Under the pieces are notes generated by a model that made no database searches, was not told where the DNA came from, and saw only the letters and a list, made by a program, of their open reading frames with translations. From Methanobacteriota archaeon (GTDB lineage Archaea; Halobacteriota; Bog-38; Methanoflorentales; Methanoflorentaceae): a stretch of 64,000 nt of DNA. The stretch spans positions 2,112,001 to 2,176,000 of the forward strand of contig OY970393.1 of NCBI GenBank assembly GCA_963720465.1, written 5' to 3'. Below are positions 20,029 to 57,097 of this stretch, piece after piece; position 1 is the stretch's first letter; every line of letters starts with the position of its first letter. Position numbers and translations under genes: made by a program.

Positions 20029-21030
20029 ATGATTGACAGCTATACCTTCTTTTTGCTTGTAGTCTCGGTTCTGCTTTCATTTGTAGTCACGTTTGTTGTG
20101 ACGCCGCCGCTTATCAAGAGAATGAAATCTGCGGGGGTGTTTGGCGTTGACGTTCACAAAGTTGAAAAGCCTGAGATTTCTGAAATGGGCGGCTTTGCTA
20201 TCTACGCAGGGTTCGCCACGTCCTTGATCTTCGCAGCTTTTTTGGGACTCAATTTAATGGTAATATTGGTTTCACTGCTTGTGGTAACCATATCAGCTAT
20301 GGTTGGGGCCTTGGATGACGTGATGCACCTTGGCGCCAAAGAAAAGCCGCTCCTCGGCTATTTCGCTGGCATTGCGCTCATATTGACTGCGGGGAGCGAC
20401 CCTTACCTTCTCGTGCCTTTGTTAGGAACGTTTTGGCTTGGACTCGCGTGGATCCCTATTGTGCCTTTTGCCGTCACAGCTGGGGCCAATGCAGTCAACA
20501 CCTTTGCTGGATTCAATGGGATGGAGATAGGTTGCGGCGCCATAGTGACGTTTGCATTAATAGTCGTTGGAATGGTGTTGATATCGCCGACTGGAGGCGT
20601 CGCGGGACTTTTGGTACTGGCGGCGCTATTAGGGTCTCTCTTAGGGTTTTTTCCGTATAATCGATATCCTGCCCGCATATTTACGGGCGATATAGGGACG
20701 CTCTGCATCGGTAGCGCTATCGCCGTTGGCGCCATAGCGCTAAAAATCGAATTATTTGCGGTCATCGCGGCTTTGCCTTATATCGTCAACTACGGCATGG
20801 TATTGCTCTCTGTTGGAAAGGTAACAGAGAGTCACTTGTTTACGGCCACGCAGGTAACGAATGACGGGTACTTGATCCCCTCAAAGTCGTATTCCGTTCG
20901 AAAGAACTTGTCCGATTACATCTTGAGCAGGAGATCGATGAAAGAACCGGCACTAGTGAAAACGCTTTGGACTTTGTGCATAATATCCGCCGCAATAAGC
21001 ATTTTGTTGGCGGTCTTGTCGACTCGTTGA
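20029..21030 (+). CDS. MraY/GPT (AglH-like) polyprenol-phosphate HexNAc-1-P transferase
   Basis: DVHK, EMGG, GALDD, NAVNTFAGFNGME, FTGDIGT; about 10 TM segments. Confidence 0.92.
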   Translation: MIDSYTFFLLVVSVLLSFVVTFVVTPPLIKRMKSAGVFGVDVHKVEKPEISEMGGFAIYAGFATSLIFAAFLGLNLMVILVSLLVVTISAMVGALDDVMHLGAKEKPLLGYFAGIALILTAGSDPYLLVPLLGTFWLGLAWIPIVPFAVTAGANAVNTFAGFNGMEIGCGAIVTFALIVVGMVLISPTGGVAGLLVLAALLGSLLGFFPYNRYPARIFTGDIGTLCIGSAIAVGAIALKIELFAVIAALPYIVNYGMVLLSVGKVTESHLFTATQVTNDGYLIPSKSYSVRKNLSDYILSRRSMKEPALVKTLWTLCIISAAISILLAVLSTR

Positions 21031-21205: not shown

Positions 21206-23521
21206 TCACAGCAGCTGTTGTGAATTGATGCTAACTGCGTCGATCGGAGCTGTGTATCTCGCGTCGAGAGTCCCATTGGATGGGGGATCCATCCATAGAC
21301 TTACGTACAGGGTGCTTGTTGCCCCCACAGTGGGCAGAATCTTTAACGGGCTAGAGCTGCCGCTTGTTGTAAGATCGATCGGCACTGCCTTAGTCTCCCC
21401 GACATTTAACGTCACCGGCTTGTACTGGTCTAGCCAAGCCATGTGCAAGCTCAGCGGATCACTGGCGTAATTCGTTACATAAACAACTACTGAGTCGCCG
21501 TTCACTTCGACGTTGCTGATCGACGCGTATTGTGTAGGCGTTTGGGCGAGCGCGTTTTGGTTCATTTGGTAAATCACGACACCATTATTCTGGAATACTT
21601 CTGTCATAATCGTGGGATCTGGAACGAAGTTCGCCAATGGAAATCCCCAGACGCTGCTTGAGTAATTTGCTTTGATCGGATCGTAAACGAAGTAATCTAT
21701 CCCCATTTTTTTTGCTATGAGTAGCTTGGTGGCAGAATCTGTGGAGCCGTTCATGAAATTGGAGAGGTCCGTGAGCTGCGATAACTGATGGGTGACAACG
21801 TAAGAGTTTTCGGAGTCGGTTGATATTGCAGCTCGGGCACTGGTGAACGTGCTTATGTATTGCAAGAAAGTCGGATCTGACAATACTGTGTCGTTGGACG
21901 TTGTGTGTTGATTGAGCCATTGCAGTGCGCTCATTTCGTCAGGGGTGATTTTTGGTTCCTGTGCGTTTACGGCAAGGGCGCTGGCTGCGGCGATATGAAA
22001 TACCGGGGATAACACGGAGATAACCACGAAAGCGATGATAAGCATCGAGCGCATTGCCCGATTGTCTCGCCTCCGTCGCAAGCCTTGGACGCGCGGCTGC
22101 GGTTCATATGCGAGCCGAAAAACAAGGATTGCAGCAAGTATTGACAGCGGGAGCACGAGATAGAGTATCGACTGCACCCCGCCTTGATTTCGGAGAACGC
22201 CAGGTATGACGCGTTGAATAAGATAAGGCAAGTGCGGCGCAGCTACTCCCAAAACACCGATTAGCGCGGGTATCAATGCCACGAGGAGCCAGCTTGAAAC
22301 AAGCATGTTTCGCAGGTTTGTCTCAGCTCGATCCCAGAGGGTTGTTTTGTAAACCAGAATACTCAGAATTGGGATGAGACCAAGACTTGAAACCATGAAA
22401 GCTAGTGAGAACGCCGTCTGAGCCGAAAACACGAGGGAAACCGCAATTACTCCAGCCATCGCGACTAAAACCAAAATTATGATCAAATTAAGGGCATTTT
22501 TTGTCGTGTGGCCAATTACGGCAAACAGTCTGTCACGGCGTTTGTACGGTGACCTTTGATCTGTGCCCCCGCTAAAAAGCACGCCGACTGCTGCGAGCCC
22601 CAACATGCCTGCCGACAAAGTCAAGATCTCTGGAATGCTCCACGGTAAAGTTTGGTACTGGCTATACATGTACAGCCACCAAGGGGCGCTAATTATGACT
22701 GGTAGCAGGACCATTGCACTTATCTGCTTCAAATGCATCCGAGTGCCAAGATTAATCAGCACATAGAGTATGATGAAGATTGTGAAAATGTAATAAAACG
22801 TCGTGGTAGAAAGCCTGTGCGTAAAAATAAGCGTTGTCACGGTGAGAGCGCCCAGAAATGTGTATTTTGATCTCAGGATAGACTTACCTGCATCGTTCTT
22901 GATTGCAGCGTAGAGGTAATATGTCGCAAGCATCATCAATATCAGCCCGAAGCTTGACGCAACGATGTATTGCGGCCCTAAAATTGCCGGATTTGGGCTG
23001 AACGTTGCCGAAAAAAACGATGCCAGGGCGGCTATTCGGGTGTCGTCTGTGATTTTCTTTACTACAACAAAAGTGGTGAGAACGAAGGCTACCAAAATGA
23101 ACGCGGAAAACCCCTGCAGCAGAACGAGCAGTTCGGAATTCATGCTAATATTCACTCCACCGAGTATAGCGACTGCGCTAAATACGATCGGGAGGCCGGG
23201 TGGGTTAATGTTGTACCAGACGTCTCCAGGGGCGGCGTTTGGATCATTTGGGCTTAACGCATTGGTTTGTTGAACGGTTTTTGCTAAAGCGATGTTCGTC
23301 GCGGTGTCGTGATCAATCAAACCGGTGCCGCCGCTCCAGTATCCAGCGTAGCCTACGGTGATAAGCAGCAGCGCGAGGGTCGTGAGCAAGATACCTACCG
23401 ACACTTTCTTGCCCAGCTCTCTCGAACGCGTTCGCTCACCCTTGTGACTGTGCTGCGTCGATGGCGGCTGAGGTGATCCCAGTCTAGAATACCCTTGGTT
23501 CTGCTCGTATCGCTCTCGCAT
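21206..23521 (-). CDS. GT-C/STT3-like polytopic membrane glycosyltransferase with an external C-terminal domain
   Basis: DHD after TM1, NPPGL loop, many TM segments, EMSALQWL...TVLSD, IDYFVY, VFQNNGVVIY; no WWDYG motif. Confidence 0.7.
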   Translation of the reverse strand: MRERYEQNQGYSRLGSPQPPSTQHSHKGERTRSRELGKKVSVGILLTTLALLLITVGYAGYWSGGTGLIDHDTATNIALAKTVQQTNALSPNDPNAAPGDVWYNINPPGLPIVFSAVAILGGVNISMNSELLVLLQGFSAFILVAFVLTTFVVVKKITDDTRIAALASFFSATFSPNPAILGPQYIVASSFGLILMMLATYYLYAAIKNDAGKSILRSKYTFLGALTVTTLIFTHRLSTTTFYYIFTIFIILYVLINLGTRMHLKQISAMVLLPVIISAPWWLYMYSQYQTLPWSIPEILTLSAGMLGLAAVGVLFSGGTDQRSPYKRRDRLFAVIGHTTKNALNLIIILVLVAMAGVIAVSLVFSAQTAFSLAFMVSSLGLIPILSILVYKTTLWDRAETNLRNMLVSSWLLVALIPALIGVLGVAAPHLPYLIQRVIPGVLRNQGGVQSILYLVLPLSILAAILVFRLAYEPQPRVQGLRRRRDNRAMRSMLIIAFVVISVLSPVFHIAAASALAVNAQEPKITPDEMSALQWLNQHTTSNDTVLSDPTFLQYISTFTSARAAISTDSENSYVVTHQLSQLTDLSNFMNGSTDSATKLLIAKKMGIDYFVYDPIKANYSSSVWGFPLANFVPDPTIMTEVFQNNGVVIYQMNQNALAQTPTQYASISNVEVNGDSVVVYVTNYASDPLSLHMAWLDQYKPVTLNVGETKAVPIDLTTSGSSSPLKILPTVGATSTLYVSLWMDPPSNGTLDARYTAPIDAVSINSQQLL

Positions 23522-23649
23522 TAGACGTGGACTATCTCAAAACGTGTAATAATAAATCTCATTTATAGAATCGCATGTCCTAGTCACTTATAGTTTTTGG
23601 TCGCCGTTTTCCAGTCTCGCTAACCTTGAACCAGCTTAGAAGCACGGCA

Positions 23650-24805
23650 CCGTAGGTGATCTCATCCGAGACCGTTCTGGTAGCTATTGCGAGCATTTCT
23701 GCCTAGGATAGGGGTAAGCCTTACCATGGTCGAAAGGGATGCAACTGCGGCGAAAACTACTCCCGATCCAATAATTTTTGCGCCCTAGCACGCAGCGACC
23801 ATTTTGTCCCAGATTCCGTTATAGACAAAAAGCCCTGAACAAGCCGCCAGCACAAGCAACAATGGCCGAATCTCTTGAATCTTAAAAAGCGCAAGAGACC
23901 ACGTCATTTATTTAAGATAACAAAACCGGGCTAAACATATCAGAACCAGGAAGTAAGCTAGGTACCCTCAGCCCTGGGCCGCAAATCCCAGTCAAGAGAG
24001 CAAAAACGCGGGTACGATGCTATAGAAAGGACGGTTATCAGCGGCACAATCAGGAAAATACTCGAGCGATAATGTGCGTCAAATACCCCTACGGCGTAAG
24101 CAGTCGCTATGACGTTGAGGTAGAGCATGCAATCTGCTACGCTGCGACGGCGCGGACGCTGTCAACGCCCAAATAGACGGGGAGGGGAATAGTGATCTCA
24201 TTCTCTCTGTCAAAACGAGCGAGAACCCCAAGGACACTTTTTGAATAAGGATTAGAGAATCAAGTAAGGACCGACGCATATTCCGACTAAGCCAGGTGTC
24301 AAGTTGCGAAATAGGACTAGAAATATGAGTGCAACGCCTCAGTCAATGATGTTTGCGAAAACGACAGTCTGATCTTGTAGAGCGCCAGCTTGAAAGATTG
24401 TACAACGGCGTATATCGTAACCAAAAACGCTATTTTGCCGAAGATCCCTCGTACTGGGTCAAGCTGGCTGAGTAACTTGCTGGAGGATCTGAGGACGATT
24501 TCTGGCGAGAGATTGCAATCGAGAGAAAAAAGCAATATGAAGAGCATTGATCGGCACGTCGGCAATACGCGAGTTTCGTTCGGCAACGATCTTCACAACG
24601 CCTTCTCAATCCGAGGGTCATCACGGCGCTTAAGATCGTAGCTATGGCGGAATGGCGAGACAAGTTCAGCAAACCTGTACGCTGGGCACTATGCAACAAA
24701 AAGTTCTTCTGCCAGCGATATGAGTTTCGCCAGCGCATATCCGGTCCTCAAAACTGAGAGCCCTCACCAGAGCTTCGGATGAAGTGTAACAGCAACAATT
24801 TGCAT
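23650..24805 (-). pseudogene. Heavily decayed Wzx-type oligosaccharide flippase (boundaries approximate)
   Basis: Collinear fragments in different frames: GYALAKLISLAEELFVA*, AIATILSAVMTLGL, YAVGVFDA, SIFLIVPLITVLSIASYPRF. Confidence 0.65.
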
Positions 24806-24925
24806 GCTTTTTGAAAAAACCGACCCAAGTCTCGCGACGGGCTGGCCGTTATGGGTCAACTATTCAGCCGTTGCTAAATACACTTTTGTTGGCGCATCTA
24901 AAAGATTATTAACGTTTACTCTGCT

Positions 24926-26083
24926 ATGGTCAATCGGATGCCTCAAGAAAGGTGCAGAATCCTGTTTGTAACTTCTTTCGACGTTCGACTGATTGACAGC
25001 GTGAAGACAGACGGCAGCATGATTCGTCTGCTCAAAGATTTCTTGCTGAGATACGAGGATCTGTGCGATCTATTCCTGTTTACAGGAGACACAAGCAAAT
25101 TTGATTTGGCGCCCGCCATAGAACACGTTCCGTCGGCGGTGTTCGAGAAATTTGGTCTTTGGCACCTTTCATATGCTGTCTTAAGCACATTCAGAATCGC
25201 CAAGCGATTGAAAGGAAATGCGCTAGTCAGGGGGTTTTCTGCTGCGTGTCCCGGGGCAATAGTCGCAGCAAAGGCAAAAAAGAAGCCTTCACTCGTTTTT
25301 TATGAATATAACTGGTCGTATCAAGTTACGCACGTGAACAAAGGCAAAATCCTTGGGACAGTTGCAAGACTTATCGAGAACTATGTCATAAAAAACGCCG
25401 ATGTTTTAGTCACGCGAAACCAGTCTCTTGAAACAGAGCTTTGCGAACGAGGCGCTACAAGAGTGGTCATCATACCATTGACGTTCGATGAAGACATTTT
25501 CAGACCCGGCATTGATGTCACAGCGCTCAAAAAGACTTACCGCGTCCGAGACGAAAAGATACTCATGTATATTGGAAGACTGCATCCAGTCAAACGGCTT
25601 GACCTCCTTCTCAAGGCAGCTGCCCAGCTTCCTGAGCACTTCAAGCTCTTTATAGTCGGTTCTGGAGCTCTGGAAGATGAGCTCAAAGACATGACAAAAT
25701 CCCTTGGCATTGCGGACAAGGTGATTTTCACGGGCGCAGTGCAATATTCCGACGTGCCGAAATTCATGAATATGGCAGACTTGATCGTGCTGACCAGTTC
25801 AATGGAAGGGCAGCCGAGGGTTCTGATAGAGGCCATGTCTTGCGGGACGCCGGCGGTTGGAACGAACGTGTTCGGAATTAGAGATACTATAGATGATGGG
25901 GTGACAGGGTATCTCGCCTCCGACGATCCTGGTGACATCGCAAGAAAAATTTCCGAGGCTTTGGCAAACGATGCGTTTCCACAAATGTGCAGGTCAGTCG
26001 CACTTGAGAAATACTCGAACGAAGCCTGTGCGTTGAAAGAAAAGGCGCTATGCAAAGAGCTTTTGGCGCTCGACAGCTACTAA
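24926..26083 (+). CDS. GT4 family glycosyltransferase
   Basis: YIGRLHPVKRLD, EGQPRVLIEAMSCGTP (Ex7E). Confidence 0.92.
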   Translation: MVNRMPQERCRILFVTSFDVRLIDSVKTDGSMIRLLKDFLLRYEDLCDLFLFTGDTSKFDLAPAIEHVPSAVFEKFGLWHLSYAVLSTFRIAKRLKGNALVRGFSAACPGAIVAAKAKKKPSLVFYEYNWSYQVTHVNKGKILGTVARLIENYVIKNADVLVTRNQSLETELCERGATRVVIIPLTFDEDIFRPGIDVTALKKTYRVRDEKILMYIGRLHPVKRLDLLLKAAAQLPEHFKLFIVGSGALEDELKDMTKSLGIADKVIFTGAVQYSDVPKFMNMADLIVLTSSMEGQPRVLIEAMSCGTPAVGTNVFGIRDTIDDGVTGYLASDDPGDIARKISEALANDAFPQMCRSVALEKYSNEACALKEKALCKELLALDSY

Positions 26084-26454: not shown

Positions 26455-27042
26455 CTACTGTGGGGGCTTCTGGATTTCGAGGACCTGCTCGTCTGGAAGT
26501 TCGATGTGCTGATCTAGTTCGTGCCCAAACATGTTGATCAAAACGGTTCTCAGCTCCTTTCGAGGAATGTTTCCGGTGTTTTTCAAGCGGCACTTCTCTA
26601 AGTACTCCTCGTAAGTGCAGATGAACCGTGCCGGATTGCCCGCATAGACACTGTTCGGCGGCACGTCTTTTGTGACCACAGATCCCGCCCCTACCACGCT
26701 ACTCGGACCGATTACTACGCCCGGCATTATAATTGCGTTGACGCCGATGAAAGAGTTATCCCGAATAATTATGGGACCGAACTTGCTGCCTTCGAAGTCC
26801 GCGTTCTGCTCGAGCACCCATTTGGCTCCGTCGTGAGTCATAAAGGTAACGCCGTATGTAACCTTGCAGTTATTTCCGATCGAAATCAAGTACGGTTCGG
26901 TGCTTAAATTGCAGTAGTAGAGTTGACAGTTGCTGCCTACGCGTACTCCTAATCTTCGTGCTAGGCGGACACGGGCTTTCCCCGTGCTTATCCTGAATAA
27001 AACGACGTTCAATCTGTAAGCGATTTTTTCTAGCCAGTTCAT
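26455..27042 (-). CDS. Hexapeptide-repeat sugar acyltransferase
   Basis: EPYLISIG, THDG, VGAGSVVTKDVP, AGNPAR. Confidence 0.9.
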   Translation of the reverse strand: MNWLEKIAYRLNVVLFRISTGKARVRLARRLGVRVGSNCQLYYCNLSTEPYLISIGNNCKVTYGVTFMTHDGAKWVLEQNADFEGSKFGPIIIRDNSFIGVNAIIMPGVVIGPSSVVGAGSVVTKDVPPNSVYAGNPARFICTYEEYLEKCRLKNTGNIPRKELRTVLINMFGHELDQHIELPDEQVLEIQKPPQ

Positions 27043-27227: not shown

Positions 27228-28277
27228 ATGTTCAAAGCTATTCCCGTAGAAAGAAGAAGTAGAGTTATTCATGATTTTCCCTACAGTGCCGAGAGCAGGC
27301 GATGTCCACACGCAGGTATCGTCAATATCACAAAGAGCGGGCACTGCGTTTTTGGTTGCGCATATTGCTATGCGAAGAGCTACCCTTGGTCTGCGAACGG
27401 ACGTTTCATTGAGGTGTACGAAAATACGCCCGAGCTGCTTGATAGTGAATTAAGAACGATTCGCACGTGTCCGCCTCTTTATTTTTGCGCCGTGACCGAT
27501 CCATTCCAACCGTTTGATCTCGTGTGGAAAACTTCCCTCGACGCAATGCGTATCGCCGCGAACCATGGCGTTTTTTTTACTATCGTCACTAAATCGGACC
27601 TCGCCTTGAAAGTCCTTGAAACTCGCTGGGCAGATTATGAAAGATTTCGCGTTTCCTTCACGTGTGAGAGTCTCAACCGTAACAAGCTCAGCGCGATCAG
27701 CAATGCCCCAGACATCTTTCGCAGGCTGAGAGCAATCGAAAGGCTTGTGAGTGCTGGCGTCAACGTCTCAGTGAGAGTTGATCCGATAATCTCTGGGTTG
27801 ACAGATGATTACGGTGAGTTGGACGAACTGTTTCAGACGTTGAGTTCGATGGACATTTGCCACGTTACCACGTCAACCGGCAGTTTCAATTCCCGGGCGT
27901 TTCGGAAATTGCTCGCTAGGATCGAGGAAGGGGGCTATGCGGAGTCAGCTGCGCTAATTCGAAGTCGCTATGTCTTTAATGGAAAAAAGTACACGCTAAA
28001 CCCGAAGGACCGACTGACGCTTTACACGTATCTCGCGTCGCTTTGCGATCATTACGACATGGGTCTCTCTCTTTGCCAAGAACCGCTTAATCTCATACCT
28101 GGTGACGCCACACGATGCCGCACTCTTGGAGAGTTGGCTATGCGAGATCGATCGGGGCGGTTCATTCCAGTTTGCGGTTCTGACTGCTTAAACGCTTGTC
28201 CAAACGCGGAATATCCGCCTTGCAAGAACGAGAAGCTTCGCACGGAATATCCCTTCAAATGGCGGACGCTTAGATAG
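27228..28277 (+). CDS. Radical SAM protein, SPL-like (COG1533-type), with a Cys-rich tail
   Basis: CVFGCAYCYA, TDPFQP, IVTKSD, RVDPII; tail CGSDCLNACPNAEYPPC. Confidence 0.85.
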   Translation: MFKAIPVERRSRVIHDFPYSAESRRCPHAGIVNITKSGHCVFGCAYCYAKSYPWSANGRFIEVYENTPELLDSELRTIRTCPPLYFCAVTDPFQPFDLVWKTSLDAMRIAANHGVFFTIVTKSDLALKVLETRWADYERFRVSFTCESLNRNKLSAISNAPDIFRRLRAIERLVSAGVNVSVRVDPIISGLTDDYGELDELFQTLSSMDICHVTTSTGSFNSRAFRKLLARIEEGGYAESAALIRSRYVFNGKKYTLNPKDRLTLYTYLASLCDHYDMGLSLCQEPLNLIPGDATRCRTLGELAMRDRSGRFIPVCGSDCLNACPNAEYPPCKNEKLRTEYPFKWRTLR

Positions 28278-28385: not shown

Positions 28386-29306
28386 ATGATTGCGTTAGTT
28401 ACAGGTGGCTACGGGTTTATAGGAAACCAGATTGCCGAGCTAATCTCGACCGAATATTCTGAAGTGCGCATACTTGACAATCTAAGCAACGCAGCGCGGG
28501 TAGTTCGATTGCCAAACGTGCGCCTAATCAAGACGGATATCAGAGATCCAGTCGCGACGAACGAGGCATTTGATGATGTTGACGTAGTTTTCCACACCGC
28601 CGCTCGCGTCGACGTAGTCGCAAGCACCAGAGAGCCATTTGTCGATATGGATAACAACGTTAAGGGTACTTTATCAGTCTGTGAGGCTGCTCGAAGAAAT
28701 GACGTGTCTAAGCTCGTTTATTCATCTAGCGCTGCTGTCTATGGAAATGCTGATTCTTTTCCCACAGATGAGGCGCAGCCGACACGTCCTCTATCTCCCT
28801 ATGCTGTGAGCAAGTATTGCGGCGAACTCTACATGGCTGCTTATCATCATTTGTATGGTCTCAGCACGCTGTCTTTGCGATACTTCAACGTTTATGGTCC
28901 GTATCAACGTCCGGAAAACGCGTACTCTGGCGTGATTAGCAAATTCTTCTATAATGCAACAAGAGACGCACCTCTAGAAATACACGGCGACGGCAATCAG
29001 ACCCGGGATTTCGTGTATGTAACGGATGTGGCGAATGCGAATCTGCTGGCAGCAAATAGCGACGCACCAAATGCAGTTGTGAACATAGGAAGCGGGCGCG
29101 AGACGTCTATAAATGAACTGGCGACGATAATCAAGGAAATGGCTCTCTCTCATTCGAGCATCGCGCACGGCGCCCCGCGCATCAGTGACGGCAGGAGATC
29201 ACTGGCGGATATCAGGAACGCAAAGAGAGTCATCAACTATGAGCCACAGATCCACATAGCTGATGGCCTTACAAAGCTCAGTCAGTTCTTTCGTGGAACG
29301 CGCTGA
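28386..29306 (+). CDS. NAD-dependent nucleotide-sugar epimerase (GalE/WbpP-like)
   Basis: TGGYGFIG, SSAAVYG, YAVSK, RYFNVYGP, QTRDF. Confidence 0.93.
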   Translation: MIALVTGGYGFIGNQIAELISTEYSEVRILDNLSNAARVVRLPNVRLIKTDIRDPVATNEAFDDVDVVFHTAARVDVVASTREPFVDMDNNVKGTLSVCEAARRNDVSKLVYSSSAAVYGNADSFPTDEAQPTRPLSPYAVSKYCGELYMAAYHHLYGLSTLSLRYFNVYGPYQRPENAYSGVISKFFYNATRDAPLEIHGDGNQTRDFVYVTDVANANLLAANSDAPNAVVNIGSGRETSINELATIIKEMALSHSSIAHGAPRISDGRRSLADIRNAKRVINYEPQIHIADGLTKLSQFFRGTR

Positions 29307-29508: not shown

Positions 29509-29601
29509 ATGCTGGTAAATGCCACGAGCAGAATCATTGCATATTCGTTATTTGCTGCCCTCGAGTTCGCGACAATCTTGCTCCTGATAATGTGGGCTTG
29601 A
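29509..29601 (+). CDS. Putative 30-aa single-TM small protein
   Basis: MLVNATSRIIAYSLFAALEFATILLLIMWA; upstream TATAAA and a hairpin. Confidence 0.3.
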   Translation: MLVNATSRIIAYSLFAALEFATILLLIMWA

Positions 29602-29688
29602 GACCAGCGCGCTTAGTAGTCAAAGACAGATGACACTATCAGTAAAAAGGCGGGCCTAACCAGGAGCCGTCTTCTTCTAAGCAATCGA

Positions 29689-30321
29689 TCACAAGGTCAG
29701 CTTTGCCAGATCGAACGCTTCAGCTTTACTATGGTTATGAATGGCTAGCATTCCGGCCTGAAAAGCGCGATACTGTGCGAGACCAGCTATCGCTTCTGTT
29801 CGCACGTAGTACTTATCGTTCTGCGTTTCGTGGAGCTTTAAAGCTTCGAGCTTGATGTTGAAGAAAGGCGTAATGTTGACAAAAACTCGCGGAGTAAACT
29901 CGAGTGACACGCTCGGAGACTCATAGAGAAAAATATCATTCACGTGCCTGTACAGCGTCATAGTCGCAAGAGCCGTATTTCGGTGATCTTGGTGATTGTC
30001 GTGCGGACTGTGCGTGTATATTCTATCGGGCCGTAATGCATTTACCTTTGCCTGAATAAGCTCGATTGTCTGAAAGTCAGTTGTAATCATGCGATCTTTG
30101 AGATTCTCAATGGTGATACTGTCCGCGCCGAGGATCTGTGCAGCTTTCTTACACTCACTGATTCTTTTGTCACTTGGCCCCCCTGCTTCGCCTTTGGAAA
30201 GTACAAGAAGGTGTACGTCGTCGCCTTCGTGTTTGTGATAGGCTAGCGTCGCGTAGCAACCTAGCTCACAATCATCTGGATGAGCTCCGATCGCGAGAAT
30301 TACTTTACCCAAATAAACCAC
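29689..30321 (-). CDS. PIG-L/LmbE (BshB-like) N-deacetylase
   Basis: AHPDDCELG, HQDH; overlaps the upstream gene by 17 nt. Confidence 0.92.
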   Translation of the reverse strand: MVYLGKVILAIGAHPDDCELGCYATLAYHKHEGDDVHLLVLSKGEAGGPSDKRISECKKAAQILGADSITIENLKDRMITTDFQTIELIQAKVNALRPDRIYTHSPHDNHQDHRNTALATMTLYRHVNDIFLYESPSVSLEFTPRVFVNITPFFNIKLEALKLHETQNDKYYVRTEAIAGLAQYRAFQAGMLAIHNHSKAEAFDLAKLTL

Positions 30322-31918
30322 CAGTGCATAATTGTTTTATAGTGTTGAACAATGCGTCCATCGAAGTATTGGTGCGCAAAGACACGTCTGCGTTAAAACT
30401 TATATTTCCTTTAAGCGCGTGCGACCATTGGGCACAGGTCGATCGTATCCCTATATTAGTTGTATAATCGATGATGGAGGGAATCACGTTGAGCGTTTTC
30501 GACGTATTGCCCACGATCGAGCGATCTCTCGCGATCTGATTTCGTTCAAATCGTGTTTTCAACTCATTTTGCATACTTGCAATCGTAACTATTTTCTCTT
30601 TAAAGTCATCAAGTTTCCTATCTGCGACTGCATTTTTTAAGTTGTCAAGCGCGCAGATGACACCGTCGATGTCCGCGAGCATATCGTCCAACTCGCCTTG
30701 GACGATCTCCACGTCGCACTTCTCATCCTTCGCCAGCTTGTATTGAGATCGCACCCTCAGTAGTTCGAGAATTGCGTCCAGCTGTCCAACGCCTCCGTAT
30801 ATATCTTTCGGTCTCCATATCGAGACGACCGGGAATCGCATCCCAAACTCTCCAGCGATCTTCTCAGCTCTGCTCAGATATTCGGCGCCCCCGTGGCCGC
30901 CGACGTAGAACGAAAGGCCTATGCCGCTAAAGGCGATGAGCATCGCCTCCGCTCGCAGCGACACGTTGGGTAACATCTGTCCCAGGGCGGAGCGCAGATC
31001 CCCCGGAAACTTCAAAGTTGCGGTGCACGCGCGACACTTCGCCACGAGCATATCATCGGGTACGTGCGTCATCTCCACGTCAGCTTTTCCGCCGCACGGG
31101 CAATGATACCAAACAGGCATTGGCGGCTTCGTAGTTAGGTTCTTCTGCGACTCGGCCATCAACTTAGCGTACTGGTCGTAGTTTTCAAGCAGAAAAGCGA
31201 TCTCTTCACTGAACACCTGTTGGCATTGGGAAAACCGCGCGAATGCGGTTGTATACCCACACTCTTCAATGAGGTACGCGAAAAAGAATGCGTTAAAATC
31301 AGCCGCGTTCGTGCTTCTGTCATACGCCCTATCGATAGCATCAGACACGACGCGCGTGTCGAAGTCGACGTCTGGAACCGGCAGCCCCAAACGTTTCGTG
31401 TATTTTGCAACCGAATCGAACGACTCGCTCGCCCAGCGTTCGATGTCGCTTTTTAGCTTTGCGACTTCGTCGCTGTCTGGCTTCGGAACAACGCGCATCA
31501 GCTTGTTGTAGTACGCCGGAGCAACCGACAAGTGGAGGGTCAGCGTGCCGTTTCTGTTTCTGACGCTCGGCAGCTGCGCTTCTCGGAACCACCGCTCATC
31601 AGCGAAGTCTTGGTCGGCAAAACAAAAGAGCTCAACTACAGGACAGTCAAGTCTCTCTCGCAACTGCTCGGCCACCGCGTGGACGAGCACCACCTTGCGC
31701 ACGACTCCACTGTAGGGCAAGAAGTTAGGCTGATGGGCAGACATCAAAATAATTCCTTCATAATCTGCTTGAAGCGGGATTCGAGAATCGTTATGAAACG
31801 CGCTGACGTGTTCAGCAAACGCTTTGCGCTTGCTTCGCATCGCGTGGTCGGGGTAAATAGCGTTGCTTGCAACAACTCGCGTGAGTTCCTGCAGATTCTT
31901 GCATTGATCTCCTTTCAT
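30305..31918 (-). CDS. Divergent BshC-like putative ligase with an inserted Cys4 module
   Basis: 537 aa, collinear with recalled BshC blocks: SAHQP..RK, PVVELFCFADQD, ADFNAFFFAYL, YVGGHGGAEY, coiled coil, SIIDYTTNIG; CPC...CRAC insert. Confidence 0.7.
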   Translation of the reverse strand: MKGDQCKNLQELTRVVASNAIYPDHAMRSKRKAFAEHVSAFHNDSRIPLQADYEGIILMSAHQPNFLPYSGVVRKVVLVHAVAEQLRERLDCPVVELFCFADQDFADERWFREAQLPSVRNRNGTLTLHLSVAPAYYNKLMRVVPKPDSDEVAKLKSDIERWASESFDSVAKYTKRLGLPVPDVDFDTRVVSDAIDRAYDRSTNAADFNAFFFAYLIEECGYTTAFARFSQCQQVFSEEIAFLLENYDQYAKLMAESQKNLTTKPPMPVWYHCPCGGKADVEMTHVPDDMLVAKCRACTATLKFPGDLRSALGQMLPNVSLRAEAMLIAFSGIGLSFYVGGHGGAEYLSRAEKIAGEFGMRFPVVSIWRPKDIYGGVGQLDAILELLRVRSQYKLAKDEKCDVEIVQGELDDMLADIDGVICALDNLKNAVADRKLDDFKEKIVTIASMQNELKTRFERNQIARDRSIVGNTSKTLNVIPSIIDYTTNIGIRSTCAQWSHALKGNISFNADVSLRTNTSMDALFNTIKQLCTGGLFG

Positions 31919-31959
31919 GAATCACCTAAAAACATGACCGCAACAAGCTTTGGAACGTG

Positions 31960-32013
31960 AAATCCAACGCTACGTTCAAATCAGCAAAATCCAGCGCTAC
32001 GTTCCAATCAGCA
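31960..32013. repeat. 27-bp tandem duplication in a divergent promoter region
   Basis: aaatccaacgctacgttcaaatcagca / aaatccagcgctacgttccaatcagca (2 mismatches). Confidence 0.9.
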
Positions 32014-32065
32014 TGATAAGTAAGCCTATATAGTTATTTTCCGTATAGATGTGCGAAGTGATACG

Positions 32066-33280
32066 GTGAAAGCCATTGTCTTAGCTGCAGGCGAAGGAAC
32101 GCGATTAAGGCCATTCACACTGACACAACCGAAAGCAATGGTACCGGTGGCTAACAGGCCCATTCTTGAATATGTGATCGATTCTCTTGCAGGTTGCGGC
32201 GTCACTGACATCAGTTTGGTAGTCGGCTACAAGAAAGAAAAAGTAATGAACTACTTTGAGGGTGGCAAGAAATTCGGCGTTAAAATAAACTACGTCGAGC
32301 AGCCACAGCAGCTCGGGACTGCTCACGCTATAAAGCTGGCCGAAGACTCAATAGAGGAAAACTTCCTAGTTCTAAATGGCGACAATCTCACCAGCCCGCA
32401 AGCCATAGAAGAAGTTATGAGCAATGCATCCGGCGACGTGACGCTCCTTCTGACCGTGAAAGAAAACGTCAAGGGCTATGGAGTCGTCACGACTGAAGGC
32501 AACCGCGTCACTCAAATAGTCGAAAAGCCCGGTACGGATATTAGCCATTATATCAATACGGGCATCTACGTTTTTGCTCCTGCTGCCTTCAATGAGATAC
32601 CTTACACAAAGATATCTCCTAGGGGTGAATACGAGATAACGGATACTATCCAAAGGATGATCGAGAAGCAGTATGACGTCAAAGGCGTCCACACTACCTC
32701 CATGTGGATCGATGCTAGTTACCCGTGGGATTTGCTTAACGCAAACGCGGCAGTGCTTGCTTCTATTAAAGAGGCTTCTGCCCGCGAAAACGGCCAAATC
32801 GAAGACGATGCTAAAGTGAGGGGAAGCGTCATTGTCGGCGAAAACTCGATAATACGTTCTGGGTCTTATGTGCTCGGGCCGGTCGTCATAGGTAGAGACG
32901 CTGAGATTGGGCCTAACGTGACTATACTCCCGTCGACGAGCATCGGAAATGGCGTTACCATCGACTCGTTTACCGAGGTGCGAAATTCTTTGGTTATGAA
33001 TGACGTGCGACTGGGCTCTCACTCTCTCGTCGCAAATTCTATCATTGGAAAAAATACAATGATCGGTTCCCATTTCATCACGGAGCAAACGAAACTTGCT
33101 ATGCCATTTCTTGATGGAGAACTGCATCACGTAATGAATTTAGGTGCGATAATCGGCGAGAATTGTCGTTTCGGGCACGGCATTCTCGTTGAAGCTGGAA
33201 AAATCATTGGTGTGCATTGCACCGTGGAATCTGCCACAACGATAAGAAAGAACGTCGACAACTACAGCAACATCGTTTGA
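32066..33280 (+). CDS. Second GlmU-like sugar-phosphate nucleotidyltransferase
   Basis: LAAGEGTRLRPFT, EKP, RGEYEITD, LbH tail lacking the HLSYVGDS motif. Confidence 0.9.
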   Translation: MKAIVLAAGEGTRLRPFTLTQPKAMVPVANRPILEYVIDSLAGCGVTDISLVVGYKKEKVMNYFEGGKKFGVKINYVEQPQQLGTAHAIKLAEDSIEENFLVLNGDNLTSPQAIEEVMSNASGDVTLLLTVKENVKGYGVVTTEGNRVTQIVEKPGTDISHYINTGIYVFAPAAFNEIPYTKISPRGEYEITDTIQRMIEKQYDVKGVHTTSMWIDASYPWDLLNANAAVLASIKEASARENGQIEDDAKVRGSVIVGENSIIRSGSYVLGPVVIGRDAEIGPNVTILPSTSIGNGVTIDSFTEVRNSLVMNDVRLGSHSLVANSIIGKNTMIGSHFITEQTKLAMPFLDGELHHVMNLGAIIGENCRFGHGILVEAGKIIGVHCTVESATTIRKNVDNYSNIV

Positions 33281-33462
33281 GGTACGCTGCAGGCGCAGCT
33301 TACTAGCATGAAATGCGTGCGAAGCTTTCAACAGCAAAAGGCGCTTGCCCTTCGTCACACGTGGCAATGCGTCGAAAGTCCAGGCCAAGAAAGTGCAAAA
33401 GCTTGACGTTACGATCGATTTTAAAGAAGCTCATAAACTCGATGTTTTTTGATTTAATTGCC

Positions 33463-33489
33463 ACAAAAGCTTTTATATAGAAGTGCAAA
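33463..33489 (+). promoter_or_regulatory. Heat-shock-type TATA promoter of grpE-dnaK-dnaJ
   Basis: ACAAAAGC-TTTTATATAGAA-GTG-CAAA resembles haloarchaeal chaperone promoters (TTTATATAGAA...CAAA). Confidence 0.65.
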
Positions 33490-33523
33490 CATACAAAAAA
33501 ATAGTCTTTTCTTAGAGGAGGTA

Positions 33524-34060
33524 TTGCTGATTCAACAAGATGACGATCAGGAGCTTGTCGAAGTAGAAATTCCCCCTGAGGAAGCAGCTCTTTTGGAAGA
33601 GCTTGACAACGTGAGAGAGGAGAACGAGGAATATCTTTCGCGCTTGCAAAGGCTTCAAGCTGACTTCGAGAACTTTAAGCGGCGCACTAAAATCCAAAGC
33701 AAGGATCTCGCTAAGTATGCGTCCACTGAACTGATCATGGAGTTACTTGATATCTCTGATAATCTCGAGCGAGCTGCTGAGGCACTGAGGGCTGAGGGAG
33801 TCCAAGGTGTCTACGAAGGAATCGAGTTGATACACAGGCAGCTATGTGATATTTTGAGTAGGAACGGAGTCACCAGGATAGAATCGGTTGGAGAGTTGTT
33901 TGACCCATACGTACACGAAGCGATCATGAGTGTAAGTGACACTGCACTCCCAGATAGCGTCATAGCAGAGGAGATTCAAAAGGGTTACAAGCTCTATGAC
34001 AAAGTGATTAGGCCCTCTAAAGTGAAGGTCAACAAAGGCACAAATAGGGTGGACCAATGA
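33524..34060 (+). CDS. grpE: Nucleotide exchange factor GrpE
   Basis: [24 protein letters not shown]...VIRPSKV; GAGGAGG SD before TTG. Confidence 0.96.
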
Positions 34061-35856
34061 GCAAAGCAATAGGCATAGATTTAGGGACGACTAATTCCGT
34101 CGTCGCAGTCATGGAAGGAGGGGAGCCAGTAGTAATTCCAAACGCAGAAGGAAATCGAACGACGCCTTCTGTCGTGGCATTCATAAAGAACGAACGCGTC
34201 GTGGGCGAGATTGCAAAACGGCAAGCGATCACTAATCCTGATCATACCATTTCGTCCATAAAGAGGAAGATGGGCTCCGACTACAAGGTCACCATCGAAG
34301 GCAAGACGTACACGCCGCAAGAAATCTCAGCAATGATCATACAGAAACTAAGGCAAGATGCTGAGAACTATCTCGGCGAGAAAGTGAACCAAGCAGTCGT
34401 TACGGTTCCAGCGTACTTCACTGATAGCCAACGGCAGGCTACCAAAGACGCGGGGACCATCGCAGGCCTCGAAGTTCTACGAATCATTAATGAGCCGACG
34501 GCGGCTTCTCTCGCATACGGCTTGGATAAGGGAGAGGAGCAAACGATTTTGGTTTTCGACCTTGGCGGCGGAACATTTGACGTATCAATACTCGACATAG
34601 GCGATGGCATATTCGAAGTAAAAGCCACCAGCGGAAATAACCTGCTCGGCGGCGACGACTTCGACCAAAGGATCATCGATTATCTGGCTGACCAGTTCAA
34701 AAAGGAACAAGGCATCGATCTAAGAAACGACAAGATGGCCTTGCAGAGACTCAAGGAAGCCGCAGAGAAGGCAAAGATAGAGCTGTCAACGCTCACCAGT
34801 TCAGTGGTAAACTTGCCGTTTATCACGGCCGATCAAAATGGCCCAAAACACTTGGACATCACCCTGACGCGGGCGCAATTTGACAAGCTGAGCGAGGATT
34901 TGATCGAAAAGACGATGGGTCCGACTAGGCAAGCCATGAAAGATGCCGGACTTAATCCCAATGATGTGGATCGTGTGCTACTCGTCGGCGGATCTACGCG
35001 CATTCCCGCGGTTCAAAACGCCATAAAGAAGTACTTAGGCAAAGATCCCGATCGCACTATCAACCCGGATGAGTGCGTCGCGATCGGGGCTGCGATACAA
35101 GCCGGCGTGCTTGTCGGCGAGGTAAAAGACGTTCTGCTACTCGACGTCACTCCCCTGTCGCTGGGAATTGAAACCCTCGGCGCGGTATTCACCAAACTAA
35201 TTGAAAAAAATACAACAATTCCGACAAAAAAATCTCAAGTGTTTTCAACTGCAGCTGATAACCAAACCTCCGTTGAGATTCATGTGCTTCAGGGCGAACG
35301 TGAAATGGTCGCTGGCAATAAGACGCTCGGACGATTTCAGTTGGTGGGAATCCTTCCAGCACCGCGAGGCGTCCCGCAAATCGAAGTTACTTTCGATATA
35401 GACGCCAATGGCATTGTGCACGTTTCGGCAAAGGATCTTGGAACAGGCAATGAGCAGAAGATCACCATCACGTCGACCAGTGGTCTGAGCAAAGAAGAGA
35501 TCAATCGGTTGGTGAAAGACGCAGAAACTCACGCTGACGAGGATCGAAAGAGAAAGGAAGAAGCCGAGATAAGAAACGGCGCGGATTCTATGGTCTATAC
35601 GGCGGAGAAAACGCTGAGAGAGATGGGGGAAAAGATCGACGAGTCGCGTAAGAGTAAAGTCACGGCCGAAATTGAAAAAGTGCGCGATGCGCTGAAAGGC
35701 GCAGATATTGATGCCATCAAGCAGGCAACAGAACAGCTAACGACCACAATCTATGAGATCTCGACTGAGCTCTATGCTAAAACCGCGGAAAAGGCTCAGG
35801 AGAAAGCCCCGGCCGGAGAGTCGGACTACGAGGTAGTCGACGAGGACGAGAAGTAG
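34057..35856 (+). CDS. dnaK: Chaperone DnaK
   Basis: [31 protein letters not shown]. Confidence 0.99.
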
Positions 35857-35865
35857 TGCGCTAGC

Positions 35866-37029
35866 ATGCCCGTGAAACGTGATTACTACGAAGTGCTAGG
35901 AGTCGGTAAGACTGCCACCGAAGCTGAAATAAAAAAGGCTTATCGTAAACTTGCCCTAAAATACCATCCAGATGTCAGCCCTGACAAAAGCGAGGCAGAG
36001 GAGAAGTTCAAAGAGATCACTGAAGCGTATGAAATCCTCAGCAATCCAAGCAAGCGCGCAACCTATGATAGATTGGGGCAGTCTGGTTTCCAGCAAGGTG
36101 CGTCTGGTGCTGGCTTCAGCGATTTCGGCGGGTTTGGTAGCTTTTCCGATATTTTCGAAACATTTTTCGGAGGCGGGTTCGGGGAGAGTCCATTCCGAAC
36201 CCAAACGAGAGCGCGCCCGTCAGGTCCGCAAAGAGGTTCCGATGTCGCAGTTGACGTTCAGGTGTCATTTGAGGAGTCAATTTTTGGAACGGAAGTTAGT
36301 GTTGAAGTACCACGTTATGAACGCTGTGAACATTGTGCGGGAACAGGCGCTGAACCCGGCACCGACGTAAAAACGTGTCCGTCCTGCGGTGGCAGCGGTG
36401 AGATACAACGGGCTCAGAACATCTTCGGGGCCCAGCTTATCAGGATAGAAACGTGCCCTCAATGCCAAGGTGAGGGAAAGGTTTTTGAGACTGCGTGCAA
36501 GAGCTGTAGGAGCGCCGGAAGGCTACGAACAACTAAGATAGTGCCGATCAAGGTCCCTCCAGGAGCATATACGGGCTTGCATATCCGAAAACCTGGGGAT
36601 GGTTCGGCAGGCGCCCGGGGCGGGCCTTCAGGCGATTTGCTTGTCGTCGTGCGCGTGTTACCACATCCGATCTTCAAACGTGAGGGCGACGACATCCATA
36701 GCGATCTATCAATCAGCGTGTCAGCTGCGGCATTGGGCGGGCAAATTGAAGTGCCTTCGGTATACGGAGCGTTAAAAGTGGATATTCCCGAAGGAACGCA
36801 GGGCGGCACAACTATCCGCCTAAGAGACAAGGGAGCCCCCAGCGTTCACAGGCGTGGCCGCGGCGACCAGTACACGACATTGATCGTTGAAATTCCGAAG
36901 AATCTGACCGAAAGAGAAAAGGCGCTCTTTCGAGAACTAGCGTCTCTAAAGGGTGAGACCATAAAGCGAGCTAGTCGCAAGGCTAAGGTTTTTAGTACCG
37001 TCAAGGATGTCTTTGGCACTAACGACTGA
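35866..37029 (+). CDS. dnaJ: Chaperone DnaJ
   Basis: HPD J-domain, G/F region, four CxxCxGxG-type repeats. Confidence 0.98.
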
Positions 37030-56589: not shown

Positions 56590-56676
56590 CGCTGGGGGTG
56601 GGATTTGAACCCACGAGTCCCGGTGGGACACTGGTTTAGCAAACCAGCGCCGTAGACCAAGCTTGGCTACCCCAAC
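56590..56676 (-). tRNA. tRNA-Ser(GCT)
   Basis: CTGGT-TTGCTAA-ACCAG, long variable arm, G discriminator. Confidence 0.96.
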
Positions 56677-56683
56677 AGCGGGT

Positions 56684-56992
56684 GTGGGCACACAGAAAGG
56701 TCGTCATTCCGCAGCCTGTCAGAGCTCCCAACTCATTCTCTATCCCGCGACCCTCCGAGCGTCACGCGTCCGCGATAGGTTTGCTCCCTTCCGGGCCTGA
56801 ACCGGTGCTCACGGTGAGCGCGTGCCGCTGGTTCTCCAATCAGTAACACACGGCCGTTGACCCCGCAGGACGGAATTTCATTGTCTGAATTGTAAGATGG
56901 TCAAACTGCCAAAATGCCTTCCTTCTGTTTCGCTCCCCACTTGTCGACGTTTTTGGGTTACAGAGGACGCCGAGCCATCCGAGCTAGCCCAG
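56684..56992 (-). ncRNA. ffs: Archaeal SRP (7S) RNA
   Basis: Helix-8 motif TCAGGCCCGGAAGGGAGCA, Alu TGTAAC, terminal TGGGC/GCCCA helix, about 310 nt. Confidence 0.93.
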
Positions 56993-57097
56993 TTATCATG
57001 TGGCAACTAATGTCCATAAAATTATCGCTGAACTTGCTTGCAAATGTCGCTGCGCCCCTTTGTCAACTTGATTAGCTCAATGTTTCAGATCGCTGGG

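Follow-up and report, generated by a model that had tools for sequence, protein, structure and literature searches.

The window analyzed here, a 64,000-nt stretch of the archaeal contig OY970393.1 (positions 2,112,001–2,176,000, forward strand) from a genome that consists of a single 2.31-Mb contig and is 91% complete, contains a pair of overlapping genes that encode a 537-residue relative of the bacillithiol synthesis protein BshC and a 210-residue PIG-L/LmbE-type de-N-acetylase. The pair probably forms a module that first deacetylates and then N-aminoacylates an N-acetylhexosamine (HexNAc) of a cell-envelope glycoconjugate. On its sequence and predicted model, the larger protein is best filed as a zinc-ribbon-bearing archaeal branch of a BshC/WbqC superfamily, outside the curated definitions of both BshC and WbqC.

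The two open reading frames (ORFs) are present as claimed by the first-pass annotation of this DNA, including their overlap of 17 nt, which takes the GTG as the start of the deacetylase (the alternative TTG at 30312 would reduce it to 8 nt). The gene pair stands beyond chance, as protein searches find orthologues of the 537-residue protein down to E = 0, its structure is predicted with a local distance difference test score (pLDDT) of 96.1, and contigs from RNA libraries extend across both genes. The latter come from metatranscriptome runs of four studies, in which contigs from a ~96% identical relative cover both genes; one contig of 2549 nt corresponds to 29600–31984, and the junction of the pair is crossed by contigs in all four runs. 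As the data are contigs, they establish presence in RNA libraries rather than a single transcript, strand or level (uncovered parts carry no meaning), and they are a weak sign of expression of the pair. A complex prediction for the two proteins scored 0.00, which has no bearing either way on binding, and no fused or longer forms of the family were found at 1071–3055 aa (weak evidence, lengths of 940–1071 aa falling outside the range).

The smaller protein scores well over the PF02585 cut-off of 28.2 bits (Table 1), and H14, D16, D17, H110, D112 and H113 (AHPDD ... HxDH) are invariant in 28 partner sequences; the score and the invariant metal and catalytic residues together indicate an intact de-N-acetylase, the only PIG-L protein found in its genome. 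Its best NCBIfam match is BshB1, at 83.9 bits and below the cut-off of 182.5. The partner profile does not distinguish between BshB-type enzymes and the archaeal diacetylchitobiose deacetylase, its PDB relatives 2ixd, 8bgn and 6p2t all matching at E ~1e-33, and the substrate is not readable from sequence.

Direct family searches with the 537-residue protein returned nothing over any curated threshold (a match to the CSL zinc finger was weak, E 0.009), and a phmmer search against PDB sequences gave a chance match only. At E ≤ 0.001, a search for relatives yielded 285 proteins, of which the first 54 listed, at 53–93% identity, are without a Pfam match (47 cover 98–100% of the query and seven shorter ones 55–85%), and 53 of the next 66 listed, at 31–35% identity, carry a precomputed match to PF10079 (Rossmann-like_BshC). 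Relatives in this lower identity range score 26–49 bits against TIGR03998, the BshC equivalog model, and one relative (P0124) reaches 33.1 bits against PF10079. An exhaustive search of 50%-identity cluster representatives found 297 at E ≤ 0.001, 68 of them at E ≤ 1e-30. Among the matches listed by a literature search, with supplements outside its scope, no paper was found on the archaeal family, its zinc ribbon or a link between BshC and WbqC.

The family alignment and profile were built from 143 diverse members. Residues P268, W270, C273, C295 and C298 are invariant throughout, and H62, Q63, P64, N65, G71, K75, D102, C275, K278, G341, G343 and Y347 are near-invariant, as are W368, D372, Y374, G376, D484 and W498; P480, S481, D484, N488, G490 and W498 mark a conserved stretch of the C-terminal domain. 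The CPC-x19-CRAC pattern that had been picked out as a possible zinc module is present as C273, C275, C295 and C298. As CxC...CxxC recurs in 206 of 217 full-length relatives, the predicted zinc module is a family-wide hallmark and not a peculiarity of the window gene. Net charge, calculated domain by domain, shows no basic bias, a result that is uninformative on tRNA binding.

The relationship to BshC is evident from both the profile and the predicted structure. Against the PDB, the 143-member profile has a sole significant match, Bacillus subtilis BshC (4wbd, E 4.4e-7; next best E 0.094), and the hidden Markov model (HMM) alignment between the two is collinear: HQPN...K is paired with GQQ...K, PV..F..D.D with PVIPIFWVAGEDHD, the DFN helix with DFF, and GxGGxxY with GPGEINY. 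Four of the five motif pairs from which the first-pass annotation had argued, by eye, for collinearity with BshC are thereby reproduced. The AlphaFold2 (AF2) model of the 537-residue protein (predicted TM-score, pTM, 0.94) has long C-terminal helices at residues 403–434, 439–456 and 459–477, where a coiled coil had been proposed. In a Foldseek search with this model the top match is 4wbd (E 4.9e-14, TM 0.59), with class I lysyl-tRNA synthetase (LysRS, 1irx) next (E 1.2e-10). VIA-align matches model residues 1–515 to chain residues 29–539 of 4wbd (Z 32.8, 440 residues), followed by class I LysRS (Z 25.2, rmsd 2.8, 292 residues), by CysRS and MshC (Z ~13–13.5), and by GluRS, MetRS, GlnRS and ArgRS (Z ~12). 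From these rankings, the protein is a BshC-type derivative of the catalytic domain of a class I aminoacyl-tRNA synthetase (aaRS).

BshC (YllA/UPF0747; TIGR03998, PF10079 plus PF24850) and the archaeal protein thus share a class-I-aaRS-like N-terminal Rossmann domain followed by a C-terminal helical domain, a genetic partnership with a PIG-L deacetylase, and the lack of visible HIGH or KMSKS signatures in either. They differ in that identity between them is only ~12–14% and the archaeal protein falls below the thresholds of both TIGR03998 and PF10079; BshC has GQQA where the archaeal family has HQPN, whereas the archaeal family has the conserved Cys4 zinc ribbon, sits in glycan clusters and, in the window's genome, occurs without BshA, YtxJ or Brx. 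In the five genomes scanned for canonical BshC, no protein exceeds the TIGR03998 cut-off. The Rossmann catalytic fold is also common to the class I LysRS catalytic domain (1irx), MshC and CysRS; neither HIGH nor KMSKS was seen by eye in the 537-residue protein, PDB searches with the protein or the family profile gave no sequence-level aaRS match, and no match to an anticodon-binding domain was reported. In the model, HQPN comes after strand 1 and appears to occupy the position that HIGH would take in the topology. In mycothiol synthesis the functional counterpart is MshC, which uses cysteine and ATP to modify GlcN-inositol following a PIG-L step; the title of a 2002 report by Sareen et al. calls it ATP-dependent.

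A second relationship leads to WbqC (PF08889), a protein of ~230 aa from O-antigen loci, which in Escherichia coli O121 is associated with an N-acetylglycyl sugar. The word HQPN(Y)LP(Y/W)xG stands at the N-termini of the WbqC ORFs that were fetched, the same motif to which HQPNFLPY of the 537-residue protein had been likened. When a WbqC profile was prepared from ten such ORFs, hhalign aligned it with the family profile at 96.6% (E 7e-10, 141 columns), pairing residues 57–234 of the 537-residue protein with WbqC 1–147; the consensus lines have in common HQPN(Y/F)LP(Y/W)xG at strand 1, DD/DxD in the next strand and GxxGxxY further along. One family member of 515 aa (G047) itself exceeds the Pfam WbqC cut-off (23.6 versus 21.3 bits). 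The WbqC profile alone did not retrieve BshC from the PDB, and Foldseek with a WbqC model (pLDDT 88.9) found nothing at E ≤ 0.001; 4wbd appeared weakly (E 9.8e-3, TMq 0.45) alongside HUP-fold enzymes, among them cytidylyltransferases, pantothenate synthetase and TyrRS. As the family profile reaches both proteins whereas the WbqC profile alone misses BshC, the archaeal family bridges the two. This supports the connection between BshC and WbqC that the first-pass annotation had suggested, with the structural match to the BshC fold the stronger and the profile match to WbqC the weaker of the two that it had anticipated. WbqC is a minimal single domain (~220–260 aa), without the long helical insertions, zinc ribbon and C-terminal domain of the 537-residue archaeal protein. 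In the phylum sample, 16 of 151 genomes have a WbqC protein over the cut-off; none was found in the window's genome. In a passage of a Streptomyces paper (PMC10404621), WbqC too has LmbE and GT4 partners.

To follow the gene pair across archaea, one genome per species was scanned and the best 80 of 164 confirmed places were retained as a locus set (numbered with the prefix L), comprising, by record title, Halobacteriota/Methanomicrobia metagenome-assembled genomes (MAGs), Bathyarchaeia, Methanomethylicus, Nitrososphaerales, Thermoplasmata, Hadesarchaea and an Asgard archaeon. In 44 of these 80 loci, which span several archaeal phyla, the BshC-like gene has a PIG-L gene no more than 1.5 kb away; of the 42 loci with flanks of 2.2 kb or longer on each side, 28 have such a neighbor. 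The PIG-L gene takes three arrangements: downstream and overlapping, upstream on the same strand, or convergent behind an ATP-grasp gene. In a quick tree of 80 rows, which left out one locus with a split gene, the linkage occurs in all major clades, with at least seven changes on well-supported branches. The pair is likewise adjacent and co-directional in all seven further loci, which come from four other families of the phylum, and the family is present in 23 of 23 genomes of the window's own taxonomic family. The co-occurrence of homologues with PIG-L and glycan genes, which the first-pass annotation had made a test of its idea, extends over several phyla. Three contigs titled as Bathyarchaeia or Acidiferrales (Acidobacteriota), L007, L013 and L021, have genes 54–87% identical to those of the window and fall inside Halobacteriota clades; they are probably mis-binned.

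The setting of the pair in a glycan island, also claimed earlier, is borne out by the Pfam matches of its neighbors in the window (Table 1). The gene order of the lineage is conserved: with the BshC-like gene reading rightwards, a divergent GlmU-type gene is followed by the BshC-like gene, PIG-L, an epimerase, a radical S-adenosylmethionine (SAM) gene and a hexapeptide acyltransferase, then sometimes by a second epimerase, by a GT4 gene, and by either a Polysacc_synt-like gene or the 771-aa multi-pass membrane protein. In loci of Bathyarchaeia and Methanomethylicus and in the Asgard locus, genes for DegT aminotransferase, GFO/IDH/MocA oxidoreductase, UDP-sugar dehydrogenase, GT2 and GT4 join the neighborhood, a set that we take to be of the kind that makes di-N-acyl uronic acid sugars. 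The BshC-like gene of Nitrososphaerales is surrounded by PIG-L, a PHP phosphoesterase, a UDP-sugar dehydrogenase and a pair of ATP-grasp genes. In L104 (27–11102, minus strand), from a low-GC member of the phylum, a co-directional run comprises a PF00953 transferase two genes upstream of the pair, a DUF1616 protein with three hydrophobic segments, the BshC-like protein, PIG-L, DUF354, a PaaK-like adenylating ligase (matching PDB 4r1l, E 8e-29), a soluble, unassigned 531-aa protein and three FemAB-like proteins, with a fourth FemAB-like gene nearby. Judged from gene order, the run is probably one operon, and its content resembles a pathway to a lipid-linked glycan that bears a peptide. PF00953 matches occur inside the fetched stretch of five loci besides L104 (at unspecified positions within it), and FemAB-like genes occur in eight of 87 loci, six of them from Halobacteriota and one each from Thermoplasmata and Bathyarchaeota.

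These gene contexts favor a surface-glycan product, the option the first-pass annotation had preferred, and suggest a three-step scheme in which the identities of the amino acid, the acceptor and the donor are wholly inferred. PIG-L, by its family assignment, would strip the N-acetyl group from a GlcNAc-type residue, one that is probably in glycosidic linkage by then, perhaps with a polyprenyl-diphosphate carrier. The 537-residue protein, judging by homology and gene linkage, would then join the freed sugar amine and the carboxyl group of an activated amino acid as an amide, with glycine and cysteine as the leading candidates and either an enzyme-made aminoacyl-adenylate or an aminoacyl-tRNA as the donor. 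In the window's lineage the neighboring hexapeptide acyltransferase, a candidate cap for the added amino acid, may close the new alpha-amine, and elsewhere FemAB-like or ATP-grasp enzymes may extend the amino acid to a short peptide. We know of no biosynthetic enzyme assigned to an N-glycyl-glucosamine linkage. A chemical precedent is provided by N-glycyl-glucosaminyl bridges in the wall polymer of Halococcus morrhuae, as mentioned in part of PMC4187196 (citing Steber and Schleifer 1979), and these bridges, together with the Streptomyces GT4/WbqC/LmbE operon, support an envelope-glycan role for the pair. The precedent is chemical only, as the seven further loci are not halophile-like (33–51% G+C, neutral to basic proteins).

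The same GT4 and PIG-L genes could instead serve a membrane lipid, with the 537-residue protein aminoacylating a head group of the glucosaminyl-archaetidylinositol type made by a PIG-A-like GT4 and PIG-L. Such a combination mirrors the way in which glycosylphosphatidylinositol synthesis begins, in its first two steps; the window GT4 weakly matches an N-acetylglucosaminyl-phosphatidylglycerol synthase model (79 versus 480 bits), and genes for small DUF1616 membrane proteins are repeatedly found next to the pair. We nevertheless regard a lipid acceptor as very unlikely, because the neighborhoods contain no lipid-specific gene and are dominated by nucleotide-sugar tailoring genes, and we know of no aminoacylated glucosaminyl archaeal lipid.

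A scan of the 80 loci for tRNA genes, with introns allowed, bears on both the product and the amino-acid donor. Of the 11 genes found, nine are tRNA-Cys(GCA), the other two being tRNA-Leu and tRNA-Ser. Five tRNA-Cys genes lie 0.5–0.6 kb downstream, on the opposite strand, in a paralogue clade, lacking PIG-L, of the window's own family; three, in a Nitrososphaeraceae clade, lie ~1.3 kb upstream, contain a 19-nt intron and were missed by default ARAGORN and Rfam (Table 1); and one is 7.6 kb off, in a sister clade. As related genomes share these neighbors, they represent two close independent events and one distant one, not nine. With this isoacceptor accounting for 1–2 in ~50 tRNA genes, its occurrence beside a BshC relative in two phyla, in one clade of Halobacteriota and one of Nitrososphaeraceae, is unlikely by chance, although insertions may simply use tRNA genes as landmarks. 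In the window's genome, 52 tRNA calls include two tRNA-Cys, neither near the window's gene. At C1 ~1403300–1405200 of that genome, outside the window, the synteny of the paralogue locus (a small ORF, a tRNA-Cys, a metallophosphoesterase and FdhD) is kept, and the second BshC-like paralogue that sister genomes have is absent, with ~138 bp left between its neighbors.

The prevalence of tRNA-Cys among these neighbors also suits a different product: a Cys-GlcN-X compound, perhaps N-acetylated, that would be a soluble low-molecular-weight thiol like bacillithiol or mycothiol. GT4 would then be the analogue of BshA/MshA, PIG-L that of BshB/MshB, the 537-residue protein that of BshC/MshC and the hexapeptide acyltransferase that of MshD, and in Nitrososphaerales the PHP phosphatase would supply the missing MshA2-type step. 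The structural primacy of BshC, the BshB1 match of the deacetylase, the GT4 and acyltransferase genes close to the pair and the PHP and ATP-grasp neighbors in Nitrososphaerales are all consistent with such a route, and part of a review (PMC7278568) suggests possible archaeal bacillithiol from 39 archaeal InterPro hits each for BshA and BshC, mostly in Asgard archaea, noting that bacillithiol is undetected there. The Asgard locus of the present analysis lies among nucleotide-sugar tailoring genes. Set against a thiol product, none of the 27 GT4 matches to the BshA model in the window's genome reaches its cut-off (the highest is 108 versus 273.7 bits; the window GT4 itself reaches 89.5 bits for BshA and 88 bits for MshA, both far under the cut-offs), and neither YtxJ nor BrxA/B was found in that genome, absences that are not proven as the genome is 91% complete. 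The contexts of the family are moreover those of polysaccharides, with GT2/GT4 arrays, DegT, UDP-sugar dehydrogenase, PF00953 transferase, flippase-like and FemAB-like genes, and the tRNA-Cys neighbors belong to copies other than the window's own. A thiol is therefore an unlikely product. The first-pass interpretation is supported in part: in its fold assignment, its BshC–WbqC link and its PIG-L/glycan linkage, and not in its option of a bona fide bacillithiol system, for which the window's genome gives no support. A claim of mycothiol in ammonia-oxidizing archaea was dropped, a literature search having returned no relevant match.

Returning to the proposed N-aminoacylation of a glycan, the tRNA-Cys neighbors raise the question of the donor. 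That BshC, the archaeal zinc-ribbon family and WbqC constitute a superfamily of class-I-aaRS-derived transferases, which would pass the amino acid from an aminoacyl-tRNA to a sugar amine instead of activating the free amino acid with ATP, is a tentative suggestion that we consider more doubtful than probable; on this view BshC and part of the archaeal family would receive cysteine from Cys-tRNA(Cys). Cyclodipeptide synthases, which have a class-I-aaRS-like fold, have lost the ATP motifs and use aminoacyl-tRNA, are a precedent for the tRNA use hypothesized for the family, with no homology claimed. FemABX proteins are aminoacyl-tRNA-dependent and non-ribosomal and provide a possible analogy for the donor, FemAB-like genes being present in the same clusters; here too no homology is claimed. 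The suggestion draws on the tRNA-Cys and FemAB-like neighbors, on the Streptomyces GT4, WbqC and LmbE operon, which by a passage of PMC10404621 carries its own ProRS and tRNA, and on the presence of cca within the bshA/bshB1 operon of B. subtilis, mentioned in part of PMC5372718. One passage of a review states that the mycothiol enzyme uses Cys-tRNA (PMC5790435), whereas the title of Sareen et al. has MshC as ATP-dependent, in line with the mechanism given above. A Cys-tRNA donor would also account for the lack so far of any reconstitution of BshC with ATP and cysteine.

The aaRS fold and the tRNA genes could also be taken to mean that the 537-residue protein acts on tRNA (for example tRNA-Cys) or on protein rather than on sugars, with its PIG-L linkage arising from other chemistry. 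In addition to the similarity to class I LysRS and the tRNA-Cys genes beside two clades, a sister clade adjoins a THUMP methyltransferase and paralogues exist without PIG-L. The lack of a net-basic domain is uninformative here rather than contrary. The linkage to a sugar de-N-acetylase and glycan genes is strong and ancient, however, and the homologous BshC and WbqC are both genetically tied to amino-sugar products, so a tRNA or protein target is highly improbable.

A number of observations weigh against the pair as a deacetylate-then-N-aminoacylate module. The window protein itself scores only 8.9 bits (E 0.6) against TIGR03998, for which the cut-off is 265.8, and 12.2 bits (E 0.12) against PF10079, for which the gathering score is 27, and it has no match to PF08889 at E ≤ 1 (gathering score 21.3). 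As neither HIGH nor KMSKS is visible by eye, ATP-dependent activation is not assured, and the reaction of BshC is itself described, in a passage of the same review (PMC5790435), as "yet to be reconstituted in vitro", with the activated cysteine "unknown". Fourteen of the 42 long-flank loci have no PIG-L inside 1.5 kb: two have one ~3 kb off, four belong to the paralogue clade and two to the sister clade, one is a second copy in a Bathyarchaeia MAG, and five are from Nitrososphaerales. The family is therefore not always in need of a deacetylase, and the PIG-L-less paralogue and sister clades lie in non-glycan contexts (DUF2099, FdhD, DUF1890/1894, THUMP methyltransferase). In the window's genome, the flippase-like gene beside GT4 is degraded, and the three tandem FemAB-like genes (C1 1190609–1193943) are ~950 kb from the pair. 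The family is old but patchy, occurring in 35 of 201 genomes of the phylum sample, and in the Thermoproteota sample only the two seed genomes of 301 matched, adding no new loci to the tRNA-Cys link.

Table 1 Coordinates of the features discussed, as feature, position (in the window unless a locus is named), strand, and supporting evidence or remark
BshC-like protein, 537 aa, ATG start	30305..31918	-	Class-I-aaRS-like Rossmann domain, zinc ribbon and C-terminal helical domain
PIG-L/LmbE-type de-N-acetylase, 210 aa, GTG start	29689..30321	-	PF02585, 91.7 bits
HQPN motif, residues 62–65, end of strand beta-1	31724..31735	-	Common to WbqC; aligned with BshC GQQA; conserved in 97–99% of 143
Predicted Cys4 zinc-ribbon module, CxCGGK-x17-CxxC, residues 273–298	31025..31102	-	C273/C295/C298 invariant, C275 99%, K278 89%
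GxGGxxY motif, residues 341–347, after Rossmann strand	30878..30898	-	Aligned with BshC GPGEINY; similar SGxxGxxY in WbqC consensus
C-terminal helical, coiled-coil-like domain, residues 403–537	30308..30712	-	Conserved PS..D...N.G...W stretch
Two direct copies of an 18-nt word, starts 27 nt apart	31960..32004	.	Divergent intergenic region between BshC-like and GlmU-type genes
GlmU-type sugar-1-phosphate nucleotidylyltransferase/acetyltransferase, archaeal, divergent from pair	32051..33280	+	TIGR03992, 374.7 versus 292.1; position conserved in 14 loci
NAD-dependent sugar epimerase/dehydratase	28386..29306	+	PF01370, E 7.5e-63; conserved neighbor in lineage
Radical SAM protein, role unassigned	27228..28277	+	PF04055, E 6.7e-9; conserved neighbor in 12 loci
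Hexapeptide-repeat acyltransferase	26455..27042	-	PF14602 and PF00132; conserved neighbor
GT4 glycosyltransferase (Glycos_transf_1)	24926..26083	+	PF00534, E 1.9e-41; conserved neighbor in 23 loci
Degraded Polysacc_synt-like flippase gene, no long ORF	23584..24860	-	tblastn, several frames, with intact 433-aa L009 homologue
771-aa protein, ~13 hydrophobic segments and C-terminal soluble part	21206..23521	-	No Pfam match
Polyprenyl-phosphate HexNAc-1-phosphate transferase type (Glycos_transf_4)	20029..21030	+	PF00953, E 2.3e-26
tRNA-Cys(GCA), paralogue clade	L012 10149-10220, L013 10168-10239, L015 10183-10254, L023 10177-10248, L024 7027-7098	-	
tRNA-Cys(GCA) with intron, Nitrososphaeraceae	L063 6631-6721, L065 6560-6650, L067 2542-2632	-	

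The degraded flippase stretch (1.4 kb) contains no ORF longer than 102 aa. Its homologue in L009 matches PF01943 weakly; sister-genus loci carry the gene intact (406–433 aa), and several genomes of the window's genus have it in fragments. That the adjacent 771-aa protein is a GT-C-type glycosyltransferase is only a guess. The 18-nt word between the divergent BshC-like and GlmU-type genes gives two matches where 0.14 are expected (none of 100 shuffles contained two) and is present as a single copy in the orthologous locus L002 (93%); from its sequence, the repeat pair is possibly an operator. One RNA-library contig stops at 31984 and continues into adaptor sequence. The glycan genes are directly adjoined by a GrpE-DnaK-DnaJ operon (33458–37029), and farther along the window carries an archaeal signal recognition particle RNA (56682–56994), then a tRNA-Ser (56590–56676). 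The tandem FemAB-like genes elsewhere in the genome lie in what is apparently another glycan island, with several GT4 matches at 1.18–1.22 Mb. In the sister clade (L020–L022, 53–55% identity), which has no PIG-L, the BshC-like gene is placed between a radical SAM gene and DUF2284, DUF1890, DUF1894 and THUMP methyltransferase genes.

The reaction of BshC is a standing gap in the biochemistry of low-molecular-weight thiols. The archaeal sister family offers a high-confidence model, a list of near-invariant residues and a zinc ribbon, and it connects BshC both with WbqC and with the catalytic domain of class I LysRS, giving three related systems in which one mechanism is testable. Judged by the gene contexts, and assuming that they are the same proteins as the InterPro hits of the review, the archaeal "BshC homologues" of PMC7278568 may belong to envelope-glycan pathways. 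If so, amino sugars would receive amino acids through such pathways, and perhaps short peptides by way of FemAB-like or ATP-grasp enzymes, and the family would be a possible route to the N-glycyl-glucosamine linkage of the Halococcus wall.

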